Virus record (IMG/VR): IMGVR_UViG_3300021142_000024
Location: 55,623-75,622 of that record
Reading direction: 5' to 3' (one strand)
Source: an uncultured virus (IMG/VR IMGVR_UViG_3300021142_000024)
Lineage: Duplodnaviria; Heunggongvirae; Uroviricota; Caudoviricetes
Length of the DNA: 20,000 nucleotides
A program made the position numbers and the translations under genes. Each line of letters begins with the position of its first letter. The first letter of the stretch is position 1. A model generated the notes under the pieces. That model was not told the origin of the DNA, searched no databases, and was given only the letters and a program-made list of their open reading frames with translations. Below are positions 2,148 to 17,452 of the stretch, piece by piece.

Positions 2148-3797
2148 TTACATACCCATGCCCATCATAGGATCTGGAGTGTCTTGCTCTTTATCTGATT
2201 TTTTTTCAAGTACCACTGCATCTACTGTGAGTATTGTACCAGCTACACTCGCTGCATTTTTTATAGAAGATATTACTACTTTTGTAGGATCAAGTAGACC
2301 AGCTTCAATACCATTTACTACTGCTCTATTTTTAGCATCAAATGTTGTAAATACATCGTCTTTAGAATTTACATTATATAAAATTTCATACCAATTCTCA
2401 ATACCTGAATTTGATAGAATTGTTTTAAATGGCGCATAGCAGGCAGTTTCTACTATAGAAAGAGCAATCTTTTCATTTGAATTCCAATTTATAGTATTAT
2501 TCTTTATAGACATAAATGCTTTGATAAGTGCAATACCACCGCCTGGAAGTATACCTTCTGCAAGTGCGGCTTTAGTCGCCAGAAGTGCATCTTCTACTCT
2601 GTCTTTCTTTTCTTTGATCTCAATTTCAGAATTTCCACCTACATTTATAATAGCAACTCCACCTACAAGTTTACCAAGACGCTCTTGAAGTTTCTCTTTT
2701 TCAAAAAATGATGTTGCACTTTCTATCTGCTCTTTAATCTCATTTGCTCTATTAGAAATTGCTGTCTCATCCCCTTTACCATCTACTATTGTAGTAGTCT
2801 CTTTAGCTACTGTGGCAAGACGTGATTTACCTAGATATTTATCTAATTCTGAAGATGAGAGTTTATCAAGTTTATGTCCTTTGCTTTTTGACATTACTGT
2901 ACCTCCAGTAAGAATTGCCATATCTTCAAGAATCAAAGTTCTTCTATCTCCAAAGTCTGGTGCTTTTACTGCACATACTTTTACTACATTTCGCATTTTA
3001 TTTACGATCATTAGTGCGAGTGCCTCATCTCCAAAGTCTTCTGCAATTACTAGAAGTGATCTATTTTCAGTATTTGCTTTCTGTAGAAATGGAATCATCT
3101 CAGCTGCAGTTTGAATACGACCATCATAGAGCATAATATAGCAATCATCTAGTACTGCATTCATTGTGGTATTATTAGTCACAAAATATGGACTCTTATA
3201 TCCACGATCAAATTGCATACCTTCAACTACTTCAAGAGTAGTTTCACCGGTCTTAGATTCTTCAATAGTCACAATACCTTCACGACCAACTTTATCTATA
3301 GCAGCAGAAATCAGCTCTCCTACTTCAATATCATTATTACCTGAGATAGTTGCCACTTGTTTAATTTGATCTTCTGTGCTGACATCTACTGATAGTGATT
3401 TAAGTTGATCTATAATCATAGAGACTGTCTTATCAATACCGTGCTTAACTTCTACTGCATTAACTCCTTGACGTATAGTCTTCATTCCCCCTTGAATCAT
3501 CTTTGTTGCAAGTAATGTAGATGTTGTTGTACCATCACCGGCCTCATTTGCTGATTTAATTGATACTTGTTTTACCATCTGTGCTCCAAGATCTTCTATA
3601 TCATTTTCAAGTCTATTAAAGGCCTTTGAGCAAGTTACTCCGTCTTTTGTGGCTTTTACTTCACCATAAGGTTCACGTATTAATACTGTGCGACCTCCTG
3701 GACCGAGTGTTGATGATACTATATCATTGAGTTTATTAATTCCAGCAAGAAGTTGCTCTTTAAGTTCTGTCCCTATTAAATGTTTTGTTTCGCTCAT
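2148..3797 (-). CDS. groEL: chaperonin GroEL (phage-encoded)
   Basis: 549 aa with [58 protein letters not shown] and an MMGMGM tail. Confidence 0.98.
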
Positions 3798-4408
3798 AAT
3801 CTATTTTGATTGTTTTTTAATTTGCTTTTTCCACCCAAAGACCATCCAATATGGATATAGTCTTCTAAATTTTGTTTTTGAATATACTTATTTTTACCGT
3901 CTTTATTAATACAAATAGAATTTGAATTATGAGAAATTCTGCCTTTATTCTGAATTCCAAATCTAGATAAATCTCCAGAATGTTTTTTGCCCTTCATCCA
4001 AGTAGTTCTACCTTTATTCTGAATTCCAAATCTAGATAAATCTCCAAAATGTTTTTTGCCATAAAAGGAATTTAATTCTCCAAATTTTCCCTTTTGAGAA
4101 GCCATTTTAACTCTAGATTCCTCAGATAAATTTGGAGCGCCATCTCCTCCATCTGTAAGATTTACTAATGGACCTAATCCTAAATCTCTACGACCTATTT
4201 CTTTTATTAATTTCTTTTCTATCTCACAAGCCTCTTCCCAAGAAATATTATTATATAAAATTTTTATAGCGTATTCATGATTTTTTATATAATCTCTCCA
4301 AGTTTTTCCTCTACTTTTTTTATCAAAAGCTCTCTTTTCACTTTTACCTATTCCTATATAAAATATCTGATTTGTATCAATCCTGTGATGTTGGTATACT
4401 ATAGCCAT
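3794..4408 (-). CDS. GIY-YIG-family free-standing (homing) endonuclease with NUMOD3-like repeats; probable start is ATG at 4408
   Basis: MAIVYQH...IFYIGIG..KRA...EACEIEKKLIKEIGR...LVNLTDGGDG, followed by FYGKKH and WMKGKKHS motifs. Stop overlaps the groEL start (ATGA). Confidence 0.8.
   Translation of the reverse strand: MAIVYQHHRIDTNQIFYIGIGKSEKRAFDKKSRGKTWRDYIKNHEYAIKILYNNISWEEACEIEKKLIKEIGRRDLGLGPLVNLTDGGDGAPNLSEESRVKMASQKGKFGELNSFYGKKHFGDLSRFGIQNKGRTTWMKGKKHSGDLSRFGIQNKGRISHNSNSICINKDGKNKYIQKQNLEDYIHIGWSLGGKSKLKNNQNRL
3942..4060. repeat. internal 50-bp direct repeat (69-bp period) in the endonuclease gene
   Basis: 3942-3991 and 4011-4060 differ at one position. They encode GKKH(F/S)GDLSRFGIQNKG twice. 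Confidence 0.9.
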
Positions 4409-4538
4409 CTTTTTGTAATTTATCTTTAATAAGTTTTTCAACTAATGCTCCAAGAATCAAACAATTAGCCTTACAGTGTTTTTTTAAAATGCTGTGAAGA
4501 GTTTTATCTATCTGTATTGATGCGCGTTGATTTTCCAT
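4377..4538 (-). CDS. 53-aa putative ribbon-helix-helix DNA-binding protein (below the ORF-track cutoff)
   Basis: MENQRASIQIDKTLHSILKKHCKANCLILGALVEKLIKDKLQKDGYSIPTSQD: an alternating beta-strand followed by two amphipathic helices. Preceded by the TATTTAT motif and overlaps the endonuclease start. Confidence 0.65.
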   Translation of the reverse strand: MENQRASIQIDKTLHSILKKHCKANCLILGALVEKLIKDKLQKDGYSIPTSQD

Positions 4539-8999: not shown

Positions 9000-10058
9000 C
9001 TATACTGCTATCTCACATGCATTTCCAGCACATGCCACTTGATCCTTAAGATCTGTATTATCATCTGACTCTATTACTTTTGATAAGTCTATATTTGTCA
9101 ATGATGTCATCATCTCTTCATATTTCTCCTTAGTGCAATCTTCAAAAGGTGCTTGGATATATGTATGATCTGAAAATGGAAGTACTGAAAGTCCATTATA
9201 ACAATTCTTATTCTCCCACATCCAATTACCAACTTCCTCCCACTCATTATCTTTAATTGATACTGTTGCAGAAATATTATGCGTATTTTGTCCAGTGATA
9301 TGACCAGGCTTAATCCAATATTCGTAAAAATGTTTTACTCTATTTAAAAGATCTAATGCTGATTCTGTTCTTAATATTGACCCTTGTGGAGCTCTTTGAG
9401 GTACTGATATTACTGCTGTATCATGTGGTCTAAAGTATTCATCTTGTACCAGCTCTGGATGATATATGCTTAGATATGTATAGATTGCTTCATTCTTACC
9501 TACTCTTATATTCCTGATATAATATTCATTATGCCATGCATGTATGCCAGAAGATGTGCCCAGGACTAAAGAAGATGTGCCTGAGGGTTTTATTGTAGTA
9601 CAACGAGCAGCAGAATTAATTCCTATGATTTTAGCCACCTCTAAATTAGTGCTTTTTACTATATTTGAGGCCATTTCAAGATCTAAATTTTGAACAACTC
9701 CAGATCCAATACCAGTCATACCAACTCCTATAAGTGCCTCTTTTTCTGTAGTTCTCTGCCAAACTGATCTAAGATAGTGGAAATTTGTATAACCAGCTTG
9801 TAATGTTCCAATTAGTGCAGCTGCTTTAACTCTTTTATTAAGATCTGCTTGATCTACTACATCTGATACATTTACTTCACATAAATTACAGAATTGGAAA
9901 GGACGTAGTGCAATTTCACAACAATTATGTACTAGTAATCCATTAGCAAAGAAGTTGTGATTTTTCTTCATACTAATATCATATACATCCTCATTTGATA
10001 CTATACTCTTTTTTATTATTTTTATTTTGGTAATTCCAGTAATCGAATTTCTTTCCAT
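9000..10058 (-). CDS. nrdJ: class II ribonucleotide reductase, C-terminal half, fused to the C-part of a split intein
   Basis: Residues 1-45 are IntC (VYDISM..NHNFFANGLLVHN). The extein then reads CCEIALRPFQFCNL, IGVGMTG, TTIKPSGTSS and C-terminal CAGNAC. Confidence 0.95.
   Translation of the reverse strand: MERNSITGITKIKIIKKSIVSNEDVYDISMKKNHNFFANGLLVHNCCEIALRPFQFCNLCEVNVSDVVDQADLNKRVKAAALIGTLQAGYTNFHYLRSVWQRTTEKEALIGVGMTGIGSGVVQNLDLEMASNIVKSTNLEVAKIIGINSAARCTTIKPSGTSSLVLGTSSGIHAWHNEYYIRNIRVGKNEAIYTYLSIYHPELVQDEYFRPHDTAVISVPQRAPQGSILRTESALDLLNRVKHFYEYWIKPGHITGQNTHNISATVSIKDNEWEEVGNWMWENKNCYNGLSVLPFSDHTYIQAPFEDCTKEKYEEMMTSLTNIDLSKVIESDDNTDLKDQVACAGNACEIAV
9924..10058 (-). mobile_element. split intein C-fragment (45 aa)
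   Basis: Block F VYDI, block G HNFFANGLLVHN, followed by +1 Cys. Lysine-rich. Confidence 0.93.
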
Positions 10059-10885
10059 TTTTTTAAATAGTTTATATTTTTTATTTTATATAAATTAATA
10101 TTCTGTATTAATGATACTTGTGTATTTATAACTTTTTTAAGTTTTTCAACTTTATAAGAATTAACAGTTAAATATCCCTTTATTTCTACGATAGCATTCA
10201 AATTATCATACTCATCATAAATAAAAAAATCTGGAGTATATTTAGTTCCATCATCTAATTTATAACTTTTAATTTCTGTGTCCCACTTCAGTTTATTTTC
10301 AGTTAGGTATTCAGCAAATATATACTCATAGGAACTTCTTAGCCAAACCCATTTATTTAAAATTCTATTATAATAATACCCCTGAACGCCTTTCCCATTA
10401 GAATTTTTTATTTTTAAATTTCTTCTAATTTCTTCATTGAACCACCCAGAATTCGACGCATATTCTTTTTTTGACTTATTTTTTCTAAAATTATTTAAAG
10501 ATTTATTTTCTATATTAGATTTATTAAGTTCTAATCCTAAAAAAATTAAAAATGATCTTGTTAGAGTATATCCAAGATTTAAAATAGAATTAATCCTTTT
10601 AATACCAAATCCTTTAGAATATTCTCTATAGATAATATCATAAGCTTTTTTAATAATATCTTTATTTTCAAATTTCCAAATATCTCTTAAAAATAAACGC
10701 CTGTTTGAAGCTCTACTAGAATTCCCTAATTCGATAATTCTTTTAGTCGAATATAATTTATAAAGTTGCTTATACTCATCAGATATTTTTATATTACAAC
10801 CTTTCTGAAATCTACCATACGATTCATTGTATACATCTAATATAAATTGAACTTCTTCTTTTGTAAAATTGGGGTACAAATCCAT
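10022..10885 (-). CDS. putative homing endonuclease of PD-(D/E)XK type between the split-intein halves
   Basis: C-terminal RSSYE...YTPDF...IVEIKG (TnsA-N/T7 endonuclease I-like active-site pattern) after a basic N-terminal region. Lower GC than the flanking nrdJ halves by eye. Confidence 0.8.
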   Translation of the reverse strand: MDLYPNFTKEEVQFILDVYNESYGRFQKGCNIKISDEYKQLYKLYSTKRIIELGNSSRASNRRLFLRDIWKFENKDIIKKAYDIIYREYSKGFGIKRINSILNLGYTLTRSFLIFLGLELNKSNIENKSLNNFRKNKSKKEYASNSGWFNEEIRRNLKIKNSNGKGVQGYYYNRILNKWVWLRSSYEYIFAEYLTENKLKWDTEIKSYKLDDGTKYTPDFFIYDEYDNLNAIVEIKGYLTVNSYKVEKLKKVINTQVSLIQNINLYKIKNINYLKKWKEIRLLELPK

Positions 10886-10910
10886 GTTATTATTTTACAA
10901 TAAATATCAA

Positions 10911-11261
10911 TTAAATTGAGATTAATACATCATCTTCAATTAATTTTGCTGCTTCTATCCAACCTCTATTTTCTGTATAGACTCTATGATCTGGAGTAAG
11001 TTTTATAGTTTGTCCATTATCTAAACTTAATTCTATTAATTCTGCATTTTCTTTTGTCTTTTTAGCCCAATTCATATAATCATATTCTAATTCCTTCGTA
11101 TCTTCATTAAATGTTAATACCATAGGAGGATAATCACTAGTTTCATATAAATCTACTAATATCTTCATTGGAATTTGATATACTACTCCTTCAGATAAAG
11201 ATTCATTTCCAGATACTCCATTGTGATCTTTTACAGTAATTAAAGAATCTCCTGAAATACA
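10911..11261 (-). mobile_element. split intein N-fragment (116 aa)
   Basis: Begins CISGDSLI (block A) after GTNP. Block B is LTPDHRVYT..GWIEAAKL...D. Acidic, ends at a stop. Confidence 0.93.
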
Positions 11262-12197
11262 CGGGTTTGTACCCCAATCTTTATCATTATTTAAGTAGAT
11301 ACCAGGCTCTCCACTGCCTGAATTTTTAATCTTATCCCAAAGACTCATAAAGAATTCTTTGGTTATTTTATTTCTAAGAAGTACTGCTGAGTTATTTGCT
11401 CTGCCACGTTGAGGATTAAGTTCCCACCAATTTCCAGATTTACAAGAAATCATTTCATCGTCATCAGCAGAAAATAGAGAAATCAGCGCAGCTCTACGAA
11501 TGCCTCCGGCTAATACTGCATCTGCAATATGACACACCATATCATGCACTTCTATTGAAGATAATTTATCTCCATTCTCCTTTTGACTTAATATGCTCTC
11601 TAATTTAAATAGACACTCTTTTAGTGGTTGAGGTCCTGGTGCTTTACCTCCTGAAGTAACAAGTGCTGCACCTTTAGGTCTAATATCAGAGAAATCAAAT
11701 TCTAGAGATGAGCTGCCTTCAAAATAAGATTTTACTAGAGCTTTTACTGCATCTGCCCAGCCTTCAATAGAATCATTGATTAAGAATCTCTTTTTTCTCT
11801 TTTTATTTGGAAGTTTTATCTCTGGTAACTTTTCTACGTGATGTTTTTGTACTGAAAATCCCACTCCAGTTCCACCTAGTAAAAGAAACATAATCTCTGA
11901 AAATGATCTATAATCATCTATAGGCAGATATGCACAGTTATAAATTCTATTTGGATTGATTTCGATAGACTTTCCTCCAAATTGAAGGCTTCTCATAGAA
12001 GGAAGTACTTTCTTGTCATAAACTAATTCATATGCATCTTCAATCTCTTTAGTTAATTGAGGGTACTTTTTAAGATGCATTTCCATGTTTCTCGTAACTA
12101 GATCTTCCCAAGTCTCTCTTCTTTGTAATTGCGGCAGATATTTTGAGTATTTCATATATACTGTAATATCTGATAATATTTTCTGTTCTATATTCAT
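10911..12197 (-). CDS. nrdJ: class II (B12-dependent) ribonucleotide reductase, N-terminal half, fused to the N-part of a split intein
   Basis: RRETWE, PSMRSLQFGG, YNCAY, GTGVGFS, IRPKG, GGIRRAALI, GEPG and GTNP, followed by IntN. Confidence 0.95.
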   Translation of the reverse strand: MNIEQKILSDITVYMKYSKYLPQLQRRETWEDLVTRNMEMHLKKYPQLTKEIEDAYELVYDKKVLPSMRSLQFGGKSIEINPNRIYNCAYLPIDDYRSFSEIMFLLLGGTGVGFSVQKHHVEKLPEIKLPNKKRKKRFLINDSIEGWADAVKALVKSYFEGSSSLEFDFSDIRPKGAALVTSGGKAPGPQPLKECLFKLESILSQKENGDKLSSIEVHDMVCHIADAVLAGGIRRAALISLFSADDDEMISCKSGNWWELNPQRGRANNSAVLLRNKITKEFFMSLWDKIKNSGSGEPGIYLNNDKDWGTNPCISGDSLITVKDHNGVSGNESLSEGVVYQIPMKILVDLYETSDYPPMVLTFNEDTKELEYDYMNWAKKTKENAELIELSLDNGQTIKLTPDHRVYTENRGWIEAAKLIEDDVLISI

Positions 12198-12510: not shown

Positions 12511-13887
12511 TTATTTTGATAATTCAAAGAATTTTTTACTTAATATTGCTTTTTCTTCAGAAGATAATCCTGTTTTATCTTGAGTTTGAGCTGATGCTGC
12601 TGCCATGGTTCTGATTTCTTCTTCAGTTAGTTCTTTATCATCTATTTGTATAAACCCATTATCTGTGTCTATTATAGCATTATATGTCATACCATCACTA
12701 CCATATCTGTTTTTCATAATATGTACTCTACCAGTTTTATTGATCTTATCAGCTCGTTTTCTTGATAACGACATAATAAAATCTGCAATCATGATCTTAT
12801 TATATGAACCAGCAGCCTTGTCTCCTTCTACAATATCATCTTTAGCACCTTGACGATTAACTTGACTTACTGACCATATTGGAGTATTAAGCTCTCTTGC
12901 CATGCCTTTTATTGCAGTATACACATCATCTATTTCATCTTTTATTTCACCGCCAACTCTCTTCGACTTTAATAGATCTATATAGTCGATAATGATTAGA
13001 TCTGGCTTGTGTCCCATGTCTGTGCATTTTCTAATATGAGATTCTACTGCATTTACAGTAGTTTTACCCATCGGGTATTCTGCAATAGTTAATCGACCTG
13101 GGAGATTGCTTACTACCTCTTCTACCTTCTCTCTATGTAAGTGTATTTCTTTAAATCCTATTCCTGTAAATACTGAGTCATATCTTTTACCTGTGTAGAT
13201 GTCTGATAGTTCTAATGTATAATGATTTACTGTTAAACCATTCTTTACAGCCTCTGCTCCCAAATTTATTAAAAACCATGATTTACCTGAGCCTGGTCCA
13301 CCAAATATAATACCAAGATCTCCTCTTCCTAGTCCACCCATAAGATGATCACTTATATTCTTCCATGGAGTTGGTACTGCCCGTCTATCATCTTCTCTAT
13401 ATCTTTGTTCAATGTCTTGAAGATACTCGTGTCCTATATTCTTATCAGCTCCAGCTTTAAGTGCAGAGTCTATTATTATTCTTATATCTTCAAATTGACC
13501 TTTAGACAGCAGATCTACTGAATTAAGTAGTGCTTTTTTGAGTTGTTGATTTTTACAAAAATTAGAAAATTCCTGCTCAATATAAAGATGATCCTCATTT
13601 GATGCTTTAAGTGCCTCCTTAACCTGTTCTGCTACTGAGACTTTAAGCACTTCATTTTGTATCTTCTTTACTTCTACTTGTAAAAATTCTATAGATGGAT
13701 TTGTATGATATTTGAAATAGTACCTTAAAGTCTCTTTAACAATCCATTGTGATGCTGGACTATCAAACATCTCTGGCTCTACAACATCACTGATATTCTG
13801 TAAAAATTCTCTATGTTTTAAAAGAGAATTAAGAACTTTTGTTTGAAAACCAGACCCATAAGAATTTAAGGAGTTTAATTGACTCAT
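12511..13887 (-). CDS. dnaB: replicative SF4 DNA helicase (DnaB/gp41-like)
   Basis: Walker A GGPGSGKS, YTLE, IIIDYIDL, SVSQVNR and KNRYG. Confidence 0.95.
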   Translation of the reverse strand: MSQLNSLNSYGSGFQTKVLNSLLKHREFLQNISDVVEPEMFDSPASQWIVKETLRYYFKYHTNPSIEFLQVEVKKIQNEVLKVSVAEQVKEALKASNEDHLYIEQEFSNFCKNQQLKKALLNSVDLLSKGQFEDIRIIIDSALKAGADKNIGHEYLQDIEQRYREDDRRAVPTPWKNISDHLMGGLGRGDLGIIFGGPGSGKSWFLINLGAEAVKNGLTVNHYTLELSDIYTGKRYDSVFTGIGFKEIHLHREKVEEVVSNLPGRLTIAEYPMGKTTVNAVESHIRKCTDMGHKPDLIIIDYIDLLKSKRVGGEIKDEIDDVYTAIKGMARELNTPIWSVSQVNRQGAKDDIVEGDKAAGSYNKIMIADFIMSLSRKRADKINKTGRVHIMKNRYGSDGMTYNAIIDTDNGFIQIDDKELTEEEIRTMAAASAQTQDKTGLSSEEKAILSKKFFELSK

Positions 13888-13894
13888 AACTTTT

Positions 13895-14923
13895 TTATTT
13901 GTATTTTGCTATTTCGTTAAAATTTGTATATAACCAAGATTGTAAATTTGTAATGCTTGCTCCTAGTTGATCTTCATTATATAGAGAAGTAAATATTGCA
14001 GGTTCATATCCTTTATTAGGATTTTGTATCATTGAGTCTATTTCAATCTTTGAATCTTCTGGAATATTAGGTTCATCTAAATCCATTAATTGTCTATTGA
14101 TCTCTAATTGATTTTTAAAAGCGTATATCTTTTGCAATATTGGTACTTCACTATCTTTGCATTTGTTTATAATATGCTCTAGATTAATAGTACGTAATTC
14201 TCCTAATTCTGGAAAATGCTTTAACAAAGTCTTAGGACCTAATCCTTTAACTCCAGGAACATTATCGCCCTTGTCTCCAAGTAGTATCTTCTGAGTTAAG
14301 AAATTATTAGATGTGACTTCGTACTCACTTAAGACGTCTTTTGGAGAATAGAATTTTTTCTTTGTTGGAGAGTAAATACTTATTCTATCTGATGCTAGCT
14401 GTAGATAATCTCTGTCTGAAGACATAATAGTTACCTCTTTTCCTATATGTTTTGCTATATATCCTATGACATCATCTGCCTCTATCTTGTCTATTGATAG
14501 TAGATCTACTGGAAGACATTTGAGATAGTCTATGAGCCTCAGAAGCTGGTTTTTAATAGCATCAGATTCTTCATCTTGTGAATCAAATATATCCCAATTT
14601 GTAATGCGTTTTACTCCTCGATTGGCTTTGTATTCAGGGTAGAGGTAGCGCTTATTTGTAGAACTACCTCTACCATCGAATACTATTATGACACGTGTTG
14701 GTCTTACTAGTCTCATCCCATATGCCATAGACTTAAGAAACCCCGTTAGTGCTCCTATATGCTGCCCTGCTGGATTTACATGCTGGATCATTGCAAAGGA
14801 TCTTAGAAAGTTGTTGAGTTAAAGACCGTCGACTATGAAAACCTTTGAATTCAGGCTTAAGTCGACGGTCTGTGTATTATTTTGTGAAAGATCATTTATC
14901 ATTTCTGCATATCTACTATTCAT
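13895..14923 (-). CDS. 5'-3' exonuclease/flap endonuclease (PolI N-terminal/T4 RNase H-like); probable start at 14923 with an in-frame TAA at 14819-14821
   Basis: The ORF-track part has VFDG, YPEYKANR, EADDVI, SSDRD and GDKGDNVPGVKGLGPKT. The in-frame upstream segment from ATG 14923 (1 nt after the previous stop) supplies the missing first motif: KVFIVDGL*LNNFLRSFAM. Confidence 0.88.
14823..14871 (-). promoter_or_regulatory. GC-rich mRNA hairpin immediately 5' of the internal stop codon (candidate recoding signal)
   Basis: Perfect 12-bp inverted repeat AGACCGTCGACT (14823-14834) / AGTCGACGGTCT (14860-14871). The 25-nt loop can form a further AAGCCU/AGGUUU stem. Confidence 0.75.
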
Positions 14924-14924
14924 A

Positions 14925-15503
14925 TTATATTTTTATTTTTTCAGCTTCATTAGGAACTGAATAATATTCAAAGTGACCTCTTACTATAATACATCTATGA
15001 TTGGGTACTTTTTCATAACTTTCCATATTATCTATTATATCATCTAATGTATCATGGATCGATTTCCTATAGTTAATATTTCCAAATGCTATATCATCTT
15101 GATGACCCACCATATCATATACTAGCACTATTTTCTTTTCTGGTATAAATGATTCAGGGTTATAGATAACTGGAGTTACATATGATCCAGGCATTGTATT
15201 AATAAAATCTTTTTCGTACAATTCTGGAGTTAAACTTATCTTATACAGATAACATTTTTTTCCAAATTTAGTCCCTTCATGAAGTATTATTGTTTTTGCC
15301 GAAATAGTATCTATTTTATCTCCTAAAGTAATATGTGCTACTGGAAGATTCATAATCTCTATTTCAGTGTCCTTAAACTCTTCACATTGTTTAAGTTCAT
15401 CTACCATAGTCATTAACTGTTCTGGTGTAAGTTCTAGATCTTCTTTCTTAGTCCAGAATTTCGCATCTTCTTTTTTCTTTAATATAAAATCTTTTAGTGT
15501 CAT
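14925..15503 (-). CDS. hypothetical protein (192 aa)
   Basis: Tightly packed, co-oriented ORF with no recognised motif. Confidence 0.8.
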   Translation of the reverse strand: MTLKDFILKKKEDAKFWTKKEDLELTPEQLMTMVDELKQCEEFKDTEIEIMNLPVAHITLGDKIDTISAKTIILHEGTKFGKKCYLYKISLTPELYEKDFINTMPGSYVTPVIYNPESFIPEKKIVLVYDMVGHQDDIAFGNINYRKSIHDTLDDIIDNMESYEKVPNHRCIIVRGHFEYYSVPNEAEKIKI

Positions 15504-15512
15504 GTCTGTATT

Positions 15513-16610
15513 TTATTCTTCTGAATTATCTATTATGCTAGCATTATCATCTTCCTCTTCTGTAATATCAAAATCACCACTTCCAAGTATTTTAAGCCAC
15601 TCATGAGCATGCTCTTTTTTATATTTCTCAATATCGGCTTTATTAGTTTTATCATCATCTATAAATCCGTGTACAGTTACAAGTAATTTTCCAGCAGCAG
15701 TAATCCCAGTAATGTGATTTTTATCACAACTCAATCTAGTTCTTTTAGCAAATTCAACAGTTTTACCGTTTTTAGTAGCGCTAATTTTATTAGTACCCGC
15801 TTTACTTATACCTCCAAATGTAATTACTAATGAAGAATCAAACCACATTGTATTACCACCTTTATTTTGTAAAGTGGGCTGTCCCATTCTCACTTCTGGT
15901 TTTGCAACCCATACTTTATTTATAGCTACAAGGGTATTAGTATATGGTTGACTTTCTTTTCTAGACATGATAATTCTTTGATTAATAAAATTACCAAATT
16001 GAGTCGACATAGCACCAGCATTCCATTCATTATTATTGGAATTAGACTCTATACTTAGTCTACATGGTATTGATCCTACAGAATCCCAAAAGAAGCAAAT
16101 ATTATATGGTAGATTGCCTTTCTTTTGTTCATCTAGAACATCAGATATAAATGCAGCAACATCTTCTACACAATTCATTTTTTCACGATCTACATAGATA
16201 AAAAATCCGCTATAATCTACTACTTCCCCAGTCTCTTGATTAACTACTTCATCAAATTGCAAACCCATTGTCTTAGCATGATCCCAAGACCACTTCATCT
16301 CAGTAATTATAAACACTGGTAATATTCCAAGTCTTTGAGCACTAACGGCCGCTTCAAGTAGAGCTGTTGTCTTTCCTGTATCACTATGACCTCTAAGCAG
16401 AGTAATATGACCCATAGGAATACCTGGAATTTGTAATGTGTCTTTAAAAGCACTCGAGAGTGGAATCCACCTAGTCTCTTTAAACTTTACTGATGTTGAT
16501 GCGAGGTTTTTTGACTTTTTAAATTTGTCAAGAGGTGATATATTACTATCTGATTTGATAGCATCTGAGAGCGCTCCAGTAAGCCCCTCTTTTTTCTTTG
16601 TTGTTGCCAT
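15513..16610 (-). CDS. recA: RecA/UvsX-like recombinase
   Basis: GIPMGHITLLRGHSDTGKT (Walker A), FIITE, FFWDSVG (Walker B), AIN and KGG. Confidence 0.9.
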   Translation of the reverse strand: MATTKKKEGLTGALSDAIKSDSNISPLDKFKKSKNLASTSVKFKETRWIPLSSAFKDTLQIPGIPMGHITLLRGHSDTGKTTALLEAAVSAQRLGILPVFIITEMKWSWDHAKTMGLQFDEVVNQETGEVVDYSGFFIYVDREKMNCVEDVAAFISDVLDEQKKGNLPYNICFFWDSVGSIPCRLSIESNSNNNEWNAGAMSTQFGNFINQRIIMSRKESQPYTNTLVAINKVWVAKPEVRMGQPTLQNKGGNTMWFDSSLVITFGGISKAGTNKISATKNGKTVEFAKRTRLSCDKNHITGITAAGKLLVTVHGFIDDDKTNKADIEKYKKEHAHEWLKILGSGDFDITEEEDDNASIIDNSEE

Positions 16611-16627
16611 TAAAACCTTTTATATTA

Positions 16628-17452
16628 TTATATTTTAAATAAATCATCTATCTCTTTATCTACATCTGTCTTCTTTGTACTTAAAGAGTAGCTCTTTTTT
16701 GGCTTCTGCTCTTCTGTTTTTTCCCAAGGTAGATCTCCTACTGTAGAATCTTCATCTGATTCTTTTACGGTTGGTGTTTCAGTCTCTTCTTCTGGAGTAA
16801 GATGAGATTGTAGAGCTGACTTCATTTCCTCATAAGTGTATTTCTTAAATTGATCAAGTGGATTTGGTTGATTTGAAAGCCAATCTTTAACTTGAGCTGC
16901 ATTATCAGAAAGTGGGGTTGATTTACCGCGAACACGTACTTTAGATTGATTGTAATTTGTACCATTTGTTTCTGGTGCAGTTGTTTCTATAGTAATATCA
17001 CGACCAGACATTACATCTGTGTAATCACCTACATCCTCATCTTCTGCAATAGCGAGTAATTCCATAAATACCTGCTTACCAAATTCCCAAAGACGTACGC
17101 CTTTATCTTCCTCACCACGTACAATTACAGGCACAAATACTCGCATTTTTGATTCAAGTTTTTTTGCAAGCTGCCAATCTTCTTTGTTTCCACTCTTACG
17201 TAGCTTTTGAGTAAATTCAACAATCGGATCTTTTTCTCCAAAATTCACTGGAGAGATCATTGTCTTGTTATTAATCCCGTAATAGATTAATACCTCTTTA
17301 AATGGATTTGATTTGTCATACGCGCTAGGTAGGATCCTAATTGAATGTTTACCTACGGTAGGTCTCCAAAGAGTCTTATTTTGCTCTTTATTACCACCAC
17401 CTTTTGGATTTTGTAGAGCCTGAAGACGACTCTTTAATGCATCAATGTTCAT
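16628..17452 (-). CDS. ssb: single-stranded DNA-binding protein (gp32-like)
   Basis: WRP...IRILP, DPI.E, VRLWEFGKQV and GRDITI, with an acidic C-terminal tail DVDKEIDDLFKI. Adjacent to recA. Confidence 0.85.
   Translation of the reverse strand: MNIDALKSRLQALQNPKGGGNKEQNKTLWRPTVGKHSIRILPSAYDKSNPFKEVLIYYGINNKTMISPVNFGEKDPIVEFTQKLRKSGNKEDWQLAKKLESKMRVFVPVIVRGEEDKGVRLWEFGKQVFMELLAIAEDEDVGDYTDVMSGRDITIETTAPETNGTNYNQSKVRVRGKSTPLSDNAAQVKDWLSNQPNPLDQFKKYTYEEMKSALQSHLTPEEETETPTVKESDEDSTVGDLPWEKTEEQKPKKSYSLSTKKTDVDKEIDDLFKI

Follow-up and report, generated by a model that had tools for sequence, protein, structure and literature searches.

How can a phage replication enzyme be made from a gene that is interrupted by an in-frame stop codon within its first catalytic motif? 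This question is raised by a 20,000-nucleotide (nt) stretch of DNA from an uncultured virus of the Caudoviricetes (IMG/VR record IMGVR_UViG_3300021142_000024, positions 55,623 to 75,622; hereafter the window), in which the minus strand carries a 5'-3' exonuclease gene of the FEN/PolI type divided by a TAA that stands between two leucine codons. Across viral contigs we observed conservation of this arrangement, covariation of a hairpin on its 5' side, codon bias, intact frames, mosaicism and an association with homing endonuclease genes. From these comparisons of sequence, the site is probably a programmed 6-nt translational bypass, or "stop-hop", in which the ribosome would leave the leucine codon before the stop and resume on the leucine codon after it.

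The interrupted exonuclease gene

The gene starts at ATG 14923-14921 on the minus strand, 1 nt past the TAA of an upstream open reading frame (ORF) of 192 amino acids (aa). Its N-terminal part (N-part) comprises 34 codons (MNSRYAEM...KVFIVDGL), that is, the ATG and 33 more codons, with the site itself reading GAC GGT CTT TAA CTC AAC AAC TTT. Past the stop the frame is open for 307 codons, to TAA 13897-13895, and the 298-aa ORF from ATG 14791, the one that an annotation would typically report, shares the frame of the interrupted gene. The parts of the gene and of the site are as follows.

14822..14923, minus strand: N-terminal part of the exonuclease, ATG and 33 codons to the putative take-off Leu, with the motifs Y-x-x-[IM]-[IL]-x-x-L and KVFIVDG (beta-1)
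14860..14871, minus strand: 5' arm of the hairpin, AGACCGUCGACU, in codons Q-T-V-D; covaries with the 3' arm across 25 aligned alleles
14835..14859, minus strand: 25-nt loop of the hairpin; contains an inner helix of 6 bp (14858-14853 with 14844-14839)
14823..14834, minus strand: 3' arm of the hairpin, AGUCGACGGUCU, in codons V-D-G plus bases 1 and 2 of the take-off codon
14822..14824, minus strand: putative take-off codon CTT (Leu); CTT in 36 of 40 unique interrupted alleles
14819..14821, minus strand: in-frame stop TAA, the presumed slow A-site codon; a stop in 58 of 58 loci
14816..14818, minus strand: putative landing codon CTC (Leu); CTN in 40 of 40 unique alleles
13895..14815, minus strand: exonuclease after the landing codon, 306 codons and TAA, with the 5_3_exonuc_N and 5_3_exonuc C-terminal domains

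A preliminary description, made from the letters of the window alone, had placed the start at ATG 14923 in frame with the 298-aa ORF and had proposed that removing 6 nt restores the first motif of the 5' nucleases, which the shorter ORF lacks; each of these points was borne out. Deletion of 6 nt gives back the canonical VDGLNNF motif. The Pfam 5_3_exonuc_N match of the protein read across the site (PF02739, E = 7.5e-30, profile positions 1-163 of 164) begins at profile position 1 (residue 27), whereas that of the 298-aa ORF begins only at profile position 23. The C-terminal family PF01367 scored 38.0 bits, slightly below the 40-bit cut-off. An alignment with the 5' nuclease of Taq spans the site, with a 2-residue gap falling exactly on L-X, and pairs the Asp of VDG, which we take to be a metal ligand, with the Asp of Taq LLVDG. 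Structure matches of the enzyme comprised Taq, T5 and T4 RNase H, and the protein has both the hhhDGxNhhxR resolvase-like domain and the H3TH/SAM-fold domain that define FEN/PolI-type 5'-3' exonucleases. The record as a whole is a 75.6-kb virus fragment of 30% G+C and about 48% completeness; when it was scanned for stops between matched codons, 10 candidates were returned, and a strong hairpin was present at this site only.

A sequencing or assembly artefact, or a mutation private to one sample, is already refuted as an explanation. Nine viral contigs contain the exact 24-mer across the site, and a 26-mer taken from the N-part matched 9 viral and 6 metagenome contigs (records partly shared), so that the assembly error which the preliminary description had asked to be excluded finds no support in these copies of the identical insert. 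The stretch is present in 20 freshwater DNA runs (from 18 named studies, with 2 rows that name no study), and contigs from 4 of these public runs have no indel at the site, with X4 record 4 and X8 record 6 bridging it; the 40 divergent alleles described below likewise speak against an artefact. Among 23 runs, no RNA run was listed as containing the stretch, which has no bearing on expression. Among the 80 closest relatives by protein similarity, the N-terminus was visible in 79, of which 70 are uninterrupted (...KVFIVDGLNNFLRSF...) and 9 have Leu-stop-Leu. Interrupted genes made up 6 of 68 relatives of allele L106 and 11 of 79 relatives of allele L107.

Recurrence of the site and its codon pattern

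Taken alone, the window would leave the question open, and it is the scans of viral contigs that changed this. A first degenerate scan ([IV]-D-x-Leu-TRR-Leu-N-x-F-x-R-x-F) returned 43 contigs, 41 of them exonuclease homologues with [IV]DGL-stop-LNxF and 2 of them chance matches. In a second scan the middle codon was left free and any CTN was permitted, which resulted in 58 contigs representing 40 distinct alleles with protein identity down to about 45%; both patterns required DG, LN-x-F and R-x-F, and other forms would escape them. Although left free, the middle codon was a stop in all 58 contigs (TAG 28, TGA 17, TAA 13) and a sense codon in none. The arrangement of DG, codon, stop and matched codon, together with a covarying hairpin, is thus conserved in orthologues far beyond the lineage of the window, as the preliminary description had anticipated for a bypass.

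The leucine codons on either side of the stop are strongly biased. Among the 40 interrupted alleles the take-off codon is CTT in 36, CTC in 3 and CTG in 1, and the landing codon is CTT in 16, CTC in 11, CTG in 8 and CTA in 5, while the single Leu at the same place in 140 uninterrupted alleles is CTG in 40, TTA in 30, TTG in 27, CTA in 25, CTC in 10 and CTT in 8. Landing codons are therefore CTY in 27 of 40 alleles and TTR in none, compared with TTR in 57 of 140 for the uninterrupted Leu. Take-off and landing codons are identical in 18 of 40 alleles (including CTT/CTT in 14, CTC/CTC in 1 and CTG/CTG in 1), the sole CTG take-off being paired with a CTG landing. Since both codons are CUN in 40 of 40 alleles, their first two bases always match and the same peptidyl-tRNA could pair with either. 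The base after the stop is always C. Allele L110 reads CUU-UAG-CUA, reportedly the classic synthetic stop-hop construct (a string search of the literature found no paper).

Longer gaps, by 1-30 nt, gave no match to a GACGG-CTT-stop pattern, which covers GAC alleles only, and scanning prokaryote genomes with the site pattern likewise gave no match. The relatives found in a phage collection, namely Flavobacterium phage immuto, Microcystis phage Mel-JY01 and one uncultured 484-kb phage, are all uninterrupted.

These codon data bear directly on programmed stop-codon readthrough, by which a near-cognate tRNA would decode the stop and Leu-X would be added in the loop past the catalytic Asp. The frame is equal on both sides of the stop and the gap is exactly the stop and one codon, as readthrough would have it, and a stop followed by C is the leakiest context. 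According to the available text of a 2016 review (PMC5009743), the products of readthrough and of a stop-hop differ by just two residues. Readthrough nevertheless offers no reason for the insert to supply a second Leu codon every time, for both Leu codons to be CTN (TTR in 0 of 80, as against 57 of 140) or for CTT to occupy the P site in 36 of 40 alleles. Moreover, any of the three stops can be used, at times in a single type of cassette (TAA or TGA), which does not suit any one suppressor tRNA, and no suppressor tRNA was found among the 15 tRNAs of the 75.6-kb record, which is about 48% complete. We consider readthrough unlikely, while leaving it some weight because the gap is always in frame.

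A covarying hairpin abuts the putative take-off codon

The preliminary description had reported a perfect 12-bp stem ending inside the CUU codon, and the stem is indeed present (14871-14860 with 14834-14823), with 7 G-C pairs and its end at the second base of CTT. A 151-nt segment of the window folds with a minimum free energy (MFE) of -32.1 kcal/mol (z = -3.16), and only 1 of 200 shuffles folds equally well. All 40 unique interrupted alleles fold, with MFE values of -18.5 to -36.4 kcal/mol; the 3' arm in every distinct allele consists of the [IV/F/L]-D-G codons, often with C or CU of the take-off codon, and most of the other alleles also have predicted inner helices.

Covariation was scored at 11 named pairs in a MAFFT alignment of 25 distinct sequences. 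Of the aligned cells, 90.1% were paired, compared with 15-57% when partners were slid by 1-3 columns, and changes on both sides of a pair occurred in 28 cells versus 9.1 ± 2.7 in shuffles (0 of 500 reached 28), giving a covariation score of 0.305 versus 0.152. The wobble base of the Gly codon pairs with the first base of a 5'-arm codon for Thr, Ala, Ser or Pro, in the states AU 10, GC 7, GU 3, CG 1, UA 1, UG 1 and unpaired 2. RNAalifold on its own recovered the core 7 pairs. G·U pairs occur at six hairpin positions, an argument for a hairpin in sense-strand RNA. In the 75 nt upstream, the median MFE was -26.4 for interrupted (n=32) and -11.8 for uninterrupted alleles (n=140; Mann-Whitney p = 1.5e-17, with alleles that are not independent), and 22 of the 140 uninterrupted alleles get as low as the weakest interrupted one. 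Taken together, these results identify a covarying 5' hairpin abutting the take-off codon as a conserved, presumably stimulatory mRNA signal.

No extra structure was found 3' of the landing codon, where the 60-nt downstream fold was -10.0 versus -8.2 in uninterrupted alleles. This again disfavors readthrough, for known readthrough stimulators sit 3' of the stop, whereas the conserved structure here is 5' and the 60 nt downstream show no additional folding. An intrinsic transcription terminator was also considered and rejected: only UUU follows the stem, and a terminator scan gave 0 sites. No Rfam family matched.

A mobile cassette beside homing endonuclease genes

The surroundings of the site in the window comprise the following features.

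14805..14926, minus strand: mosaic cassette block, 100% identical DNA in two exonuclease lineages and at least 4 upstream contexts
14925..15503, minus strand: variable slot between recombinase and exonuclease, here with the 192-aa ORF of no known family
15513..16610, minus strand: UvsX/RecA-like recombinase gene, the conserved upstream neighbor
12511..13887, minus strand: DnaB-like helicase gene, the conserved downstream neighbor

The gene order (single-stranded DNA-binding protein, RecA/UvsX, exonuclease, DnaB) is the same in Flavobacterium phage immuto, which is the closest cultured relative (43% identity). The 9 interrupted closest relatives fall into two exonuclease lineages that are about 84% identical downstream of the site and share a block of about 120 nt at 100% identity, which begins some 3 nt ahead of the ATG and runs until 14 nt beyond the landing codon; Logan contigs have branch points at both of its edges, 14804/14805 and 14926. 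The block is preceded by one of four contexts: the 192-aa ORF found in the window, no ORF, a chimeric ORF of 71 aa, or an HNH homing endonuclease gene (phrog_655, E = 2.6e-34 and 4.3e-37), whose product in L082 has 193 aa. Variants of the cassette include L098/L140, with TGA CTT AAT instead of TAA CTC AAC, and L104, where TAC GTA replaces TAT GCA with the frame kept. In L004 / L088 / L135 (IMGVR_UViG_3300000439_000276) a deletion shortens CACAG to CAC just 5' of the hairpin, and this frameshifted cassette directly follows an intact HNH homing endonuclease gene; the frameshift reflects either genuine decay or a mistake in an older assembly.

On a tree of 130 distinct C-terminal parts (C-parts), whose uninterrupted alleles were sampled from relatives of three queries, the interrupted state takes 10 changes, at least 7 of which are forced by well-supported branches. 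Contig L149 (the L106 contig; interrupted, with an endonuclease upstream) and L150 (uninterrupted, with the recombinase directly upstream) are 95-100% identical from about 50 nt past the site and unrelated before it, a boundary which parallels that at 14 nt in the window. By these comparisons the N-terminal piece, hairpin and stop behave as one horizontally moving cassette, and the 34-codon N-terminus in the window was imported together with it, recently in this lineage.

A second type of upstream endonuclease, of 312-346 aa and with 335 aa in L106, combines NUMOD3 motifs with a nuclease-like region at the C-terminus (phrog_3339, phrog_559 and phrog_22677; weak REase_MTES_1575). An endonuclease homologue is found no more than 1.3 kb upstream in 16 of 29 distinct interrupted contexts versus 4 of 109 uninterrupted ones (Fisher p = 6.4e-10, with contexts that are not independent); 13 of the 16 are full-length and adjacent (including L138, whose ORF status is uncertain) and 3 are remnants or displaced. 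The endonuclease ORF overlaps the exonuclease start in L136, L137, L138, L142, L147 and L148. In four of these (L136, L138, L142, L148) the NUMOD3-type ORF continues in another frame across the start of the exonuclease gene and the hairpin's 5' part, as far as the [IV]DG codons, with the result that three functions share the same 70 nt.

The slot in the window itself is without an endonuclease gene, while in sister contigs it is empty or holds the HNH gene or a 71-aa chimeric remnant. The 71-aa ORF (L085 / L098 / L105) joins the first ~29 residues of the 192-aa ORF to a C-terminal remnant of a NUMOD3-type endonuclease, which points to repeated rearrangement in the slot between recombinase and exonuclease. 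This remnant fits a "hit and run" pattern, a term that appears as a section heading of the preprint on gene 60 homologues. A second homing endonuclease gene is located in the gap between exonuclease and helicase in the group B contigs (L082 4049-4768; phrog_314, NUMOD3; N-terminus YVYRHIRLDKNEVFYIGIG, GIY-YIG-like by eye), so the exonuclease gene of group B has endonuclease genes on either side. We propose that the cassette spreads among phage exonuclease genes by gene conversion, often beside a homing endonuclease gene. The insert probably splits the endonuclease target, the invariant coding sequence for DGLN, with the hop paying the cost of this putative immunity.

Intact frames and selection on both parts

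Complete interrupted genes were present in 36 of the 41 loci from the first scan, and all 36 have an ATG, an N-part of 22-41 codons, one stop and an open C-part of 306-327 codons; homologous N-parts of 22-41 codons are present in all 41 loci. Several complete genes terminate with the same type of stop as their internal one, and the distance to the next in-frame ATG varies from 3 to 109 codons. Both reassignment of the stop and restart at a conserved codon are excluded because there is one internal stop per gene, stop types are shared and the next ATG is scattered. An alternative genetic code was rejected on similar grounds: each gene has a single internal stop, all three types occur at the site, and the genes and their neighbors end in the same stops.

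Within a clade of six alleles that are all interrupted, protein identity was 63-91%, raw synonymous divergence (pS) was 0.35-0.80, which is near saturation, and the ratio of nonsynonymous to synonymous divergence (pN/pS) was 0.15-0.36. Divergence of the N-part keeps step with that of the C-part, with pN/pS values of 0.32-0.55 for the N-part and 0.10-0.48 for the first 19 codons past the stop. As judged from these ratios, both parts of the ORF are under purifying selection.

These data weigh on the possibility that a knocked-out or truncated gene is simply tolerated, the insert being a selfish mark of endonuclease immunity or a scar and the host Pol I 5' nuclease substituting for the enzyme. 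T4 rnh mutants are viable, the closest relatives of the window gene are uninterrupted, the cassette moves horizontally and adjoins homing endonuclease genes, and the N-part is frameshifted in one contig. A knocked-out gene would, however, hardly keep a C-part of 306-327 codons open with no second lesion in 36 of 36 complete genes, nor an N-part with ATG, frame and motifs, while a clade that is interrupted throughout fell to 63% protein identity, with pS coming close to saturation and pN/pS staying at or below 0.36. Neither would it account for the lack of a sense codon in place of the stop (0 of 58) or for the compensatory changes that maintain the hairpin, and matched CTN codons are needless for a scar. 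We therefore regard a knock-out as improbable. The preliminary description had held that uninterrupted relatives with no hairpin, combined with decay of this copy, would speak against a bypass; only half of this pattern was found, since 70 of 79 nearest relatives are uninterrupted but neither part is closed in this copy or in any of the 36 complete interrupted genes.

Even less probable, in our judgment, is termination followed by reinitiation, which would give a 34-aa peptide (beta-1 with the Asp) and a C-fragment from ATG 14791 as a non-covalent split enzyme. Coupling through short ORFs is common in phages, and the window does have an in-frame ATG 10 codons past the stop. Yet the Met of ATG 14791 is also present in uninterrupted close relatives, and the next ATG of other alleles is 3 to 109 codons off (e.g., 59, 76, 84, 90, 109). 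In addition, conservation is strong over the 9-19 codons that separate the stop from the ATG (LNxF[IL]RxF...; pN/pS 0.10-0.48), which would not be expected unless they were translated.

A proposed mechanism and its difficulties

What we infer is the hop, the way in which the hairpin acts and the role in immunity; for the hop, the following sequence of events would fit the site. The ribosome would finish the 34-codon N-part with CUU in the P site and stop-C, a poor terminator, in the A site. During the slow reading of the stop, CUU, the classic shifty codon of prfB and Ty1, would be released by peptidyl-tRNA-Leu, the mRNA would slip by 6 nt, and the same tRNA would re-pair at the first CUN. Decoding would then restart at AAC to give ...VDGLNNFLR... 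and a 340-aa enzyme, while terminating ribosomes would instead release a 34-aa peptide. The 3' arm of the hairpin would be inside the ribosome at take-off, and its re-zipping with the 5' arm at the mRNA exit channel could pull the mRNA forward, much as the 5' stem-loop of T4 gene 60 has been proposed to do in a "driver" role. The record encodes 15 tRNAs, including tRNA-Leu(UAG) and Leu(UAA), and it is a matter of speculation that the phage tRNA-Leu(UAG) is the hopping tRNA. The bypass suggested in the preliminary description is thus supported by the conserved codon-stop-codon arrangement and the covarying hairpin, while the choice between hop and readthrough is drawn indirectly from the codon pattern and the position of the structure. 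That the product would lack the residues of the gap is suggested, again indirectly, by the family motif DGLN, which returns once 6 nt are taken out.

Several observations weigh against a programmed hop. Every gap is in frame and 6 nt long, so that the comparative data also fit readthrough to DGL-X-LN. The element is missing from 200 of 226 relatives fetched by protein similarity and is, since most relatives are without it, dispensable for the enzyme. The allele counts are phylogenetically non-independent, and a tblastn search of a phage collection with three exonuclease C-parts found no cultured carrier. Hairpins are not confined to interrupted genes: at least 9 anchored pairs, by a lenient count, were present in 25 of 126 uninterrupted compared with 32 of 35 interrupted alleles, and L150-L154, at around locus position 1440-1500, form a 10-bp hairpin ending at the Gly codon, yet without a stop. 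In the latter the Leu codon is TTA, the C-part is 94-98% identical to that of interrupted L106 and the N-part is different, and they may represent either the cassette after loss of the insert or its precursor. The sole sign of decay is found in L004/L088, in which the L104 change is combined with a 2-nt deletion that frameshifts the N-part. As to the mechanism, the 3' arm would lie wholly inside the ribosome at take-off and a move of 6 nt would free little of it, so the pull is no more than plausible. Finally, unstimulated synthetic stop-hops are described as "low-level" and inefficient in the available portions of two preprints (10.1101/2022.08.31.505936, 10.1101/2024.12.09.627546).

Other features of the window and record

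Ribonucleotide reductase is encoded in the window on the minus strand (9000-12197) in two ORFs, 10911-12197 and 9000-10058, separated by a 287-aa ORF of no known family (10022-10885). The end of ORF 10911-12197 turns intein-like (CISGDSLITV...), and the layout looks like a "fractured gene" with a split intein and a free-standing endonuclease, an arrangement described under that name in the available text of PMC2677866. A GroEL-like chaperonin gene (2148-3797, minus strand; phrog_5725, E = 2.3e-134) is accompanied by a 215-aa ORF (3794-4441, minus strand) that matches phrog_15526. Because this family is also matched by the N-terminus of the GIY-YIG-like endonuclease, the 215-aa ORF may be another homing endonuclease gene. 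Outside the window, the record (G000:C1) has a gene resembling that of transfer-messenger RNA, predicted by ARAGORN at 10057-10457, whose tag, ANVELSTWTFEDAMAFADGEFAMAA, is unusually long, and 15 clustered tRNA genes at 13850-16814.

Relation to known recoding systems

The site has most in common with the bypassing elements of T4 gene 60 and MobA. Shared features are the matched codons, the stop right after take-off and the 5' stem-loop, the location in an essential replication gene of large myovirus-like phages, and the horizontal cassette beside a homing endonuclease gene, with an insert that is thought to shield the target. Two preprints, in the parts available to us, describe the MobA/gene 60 insert as a mobile protective cassette (10.1101/2022.08.31.505936) and propose pairing of the exiting mRNA as a forward driver in gene 60 bypass (10.1101/2024.12.09.627546). 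The gap is, however, 50 nt in gene 60 and 6 nt, in frame, here; the take-off/A-site stem-loop, internal Shine-Dalgarno (SD) sequence and 3' barrier of gene 60 are not evident here; the codons are Leu CUU/CUN rather than Gly GGA; and the gene is an unsplit FEN-type exonuclease rather than a topoisomerase. The endonucleases here are of two families, HNH (phrog_655) and NUMOD3 with a nuclease domain (phrog_3339/559/22677). Membership in the T4 gene 60/MobA family was considered and rejected, as sequence homology to its coding gap is lacking, a different gene is interrupted and the gap comprises 6 nt.

Synthetic stop-hops in E. coli (Weiss et al. 1987) share with the site the decoding of 9 nt as one amino acid and matched codons around a stop, and constructs of this kind work at a low level in E. 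coli, as cited in the available text of PMC5009743 and 10.1101/2024.12.09.627546. Whereas those hops are artificial, unstimulated and low-level, the element here is natural, deeply conserved and always accompanied by a covarying 5' hairpin. The frameshift sites prfB CUU_UGA_C and Ty1 CUU_AGG_C likewise have a P-site CUU followed by U, a slow A-site codon and C, with a stimulator on the mRNA just 5' of the shift site. The text available of PMC5009743 describes CUU_U as by far the best release factor 2 (RF2) shift site and tRNA-Leu(UAG) of Ty1 as a tRNA that decodes all CUN codons and readily dissociates. Those sites give a +1 shift, whereas here the shift would be +6 and in frame, since the +1 frame ends after 6 codons; the stimulator is a hairpin rather than the SD:anti-SD duplex of prfB, and there is no link here to release-factor autoregulation.

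The byps of Magnusiomyces capitatus mitochondria are also short mobile inserts in essential genes that are neutralized by bypassing, but they are 27-55 nt long, mitochondrial, context-independent and present at many sites per genome, with an unused sense codon in the A site. Programmed readthrough, of which Qbeta A1 is an example, shares a leaky in-frame stop within a functional ORF; it needs no duplicated codon and yields an extension, whereas here a core catalytic motif is restored.

Implications

In its available text, a 2016 review states that in-frame stop-hopping works in synthetic constructs and that "no occurences are known" in nature (PMC5009743), and no later report of a natural stop-hop was found in the open-access literature. 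On balance we lean, by a narrower measure than for the bypass itself, toward the view that this is the first natural programmed stop-hop: a minimal 6-nt bypass that would need only CUU-stop-C and a re-forming hairpin, carried on mobile cassettes spread by endonucleases. Natural bypassing is known from very few systems, namely T4 gene 60 with its homologues and the byps of yeast mitochondria, and the site would, if the bypass is confirmed, constitute a second, independent and far simpler phage family. It would separate the pairing of exiting mRNA as a driver from the nascent-peptide and A-site stem-loop signals with which it is combined in gene 60, and the 40 natural variants, with stems from 7 bp (L148) to 17 bp (L126), three stops and four landing codons, provide a ready mutational series. 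It would also call for caution in annotation, as such genes are currently called as truncated ORFs of 298 aa. Finally, homing endonucleases and recoding elements would again be seen to co-evolve as one mobile unit.

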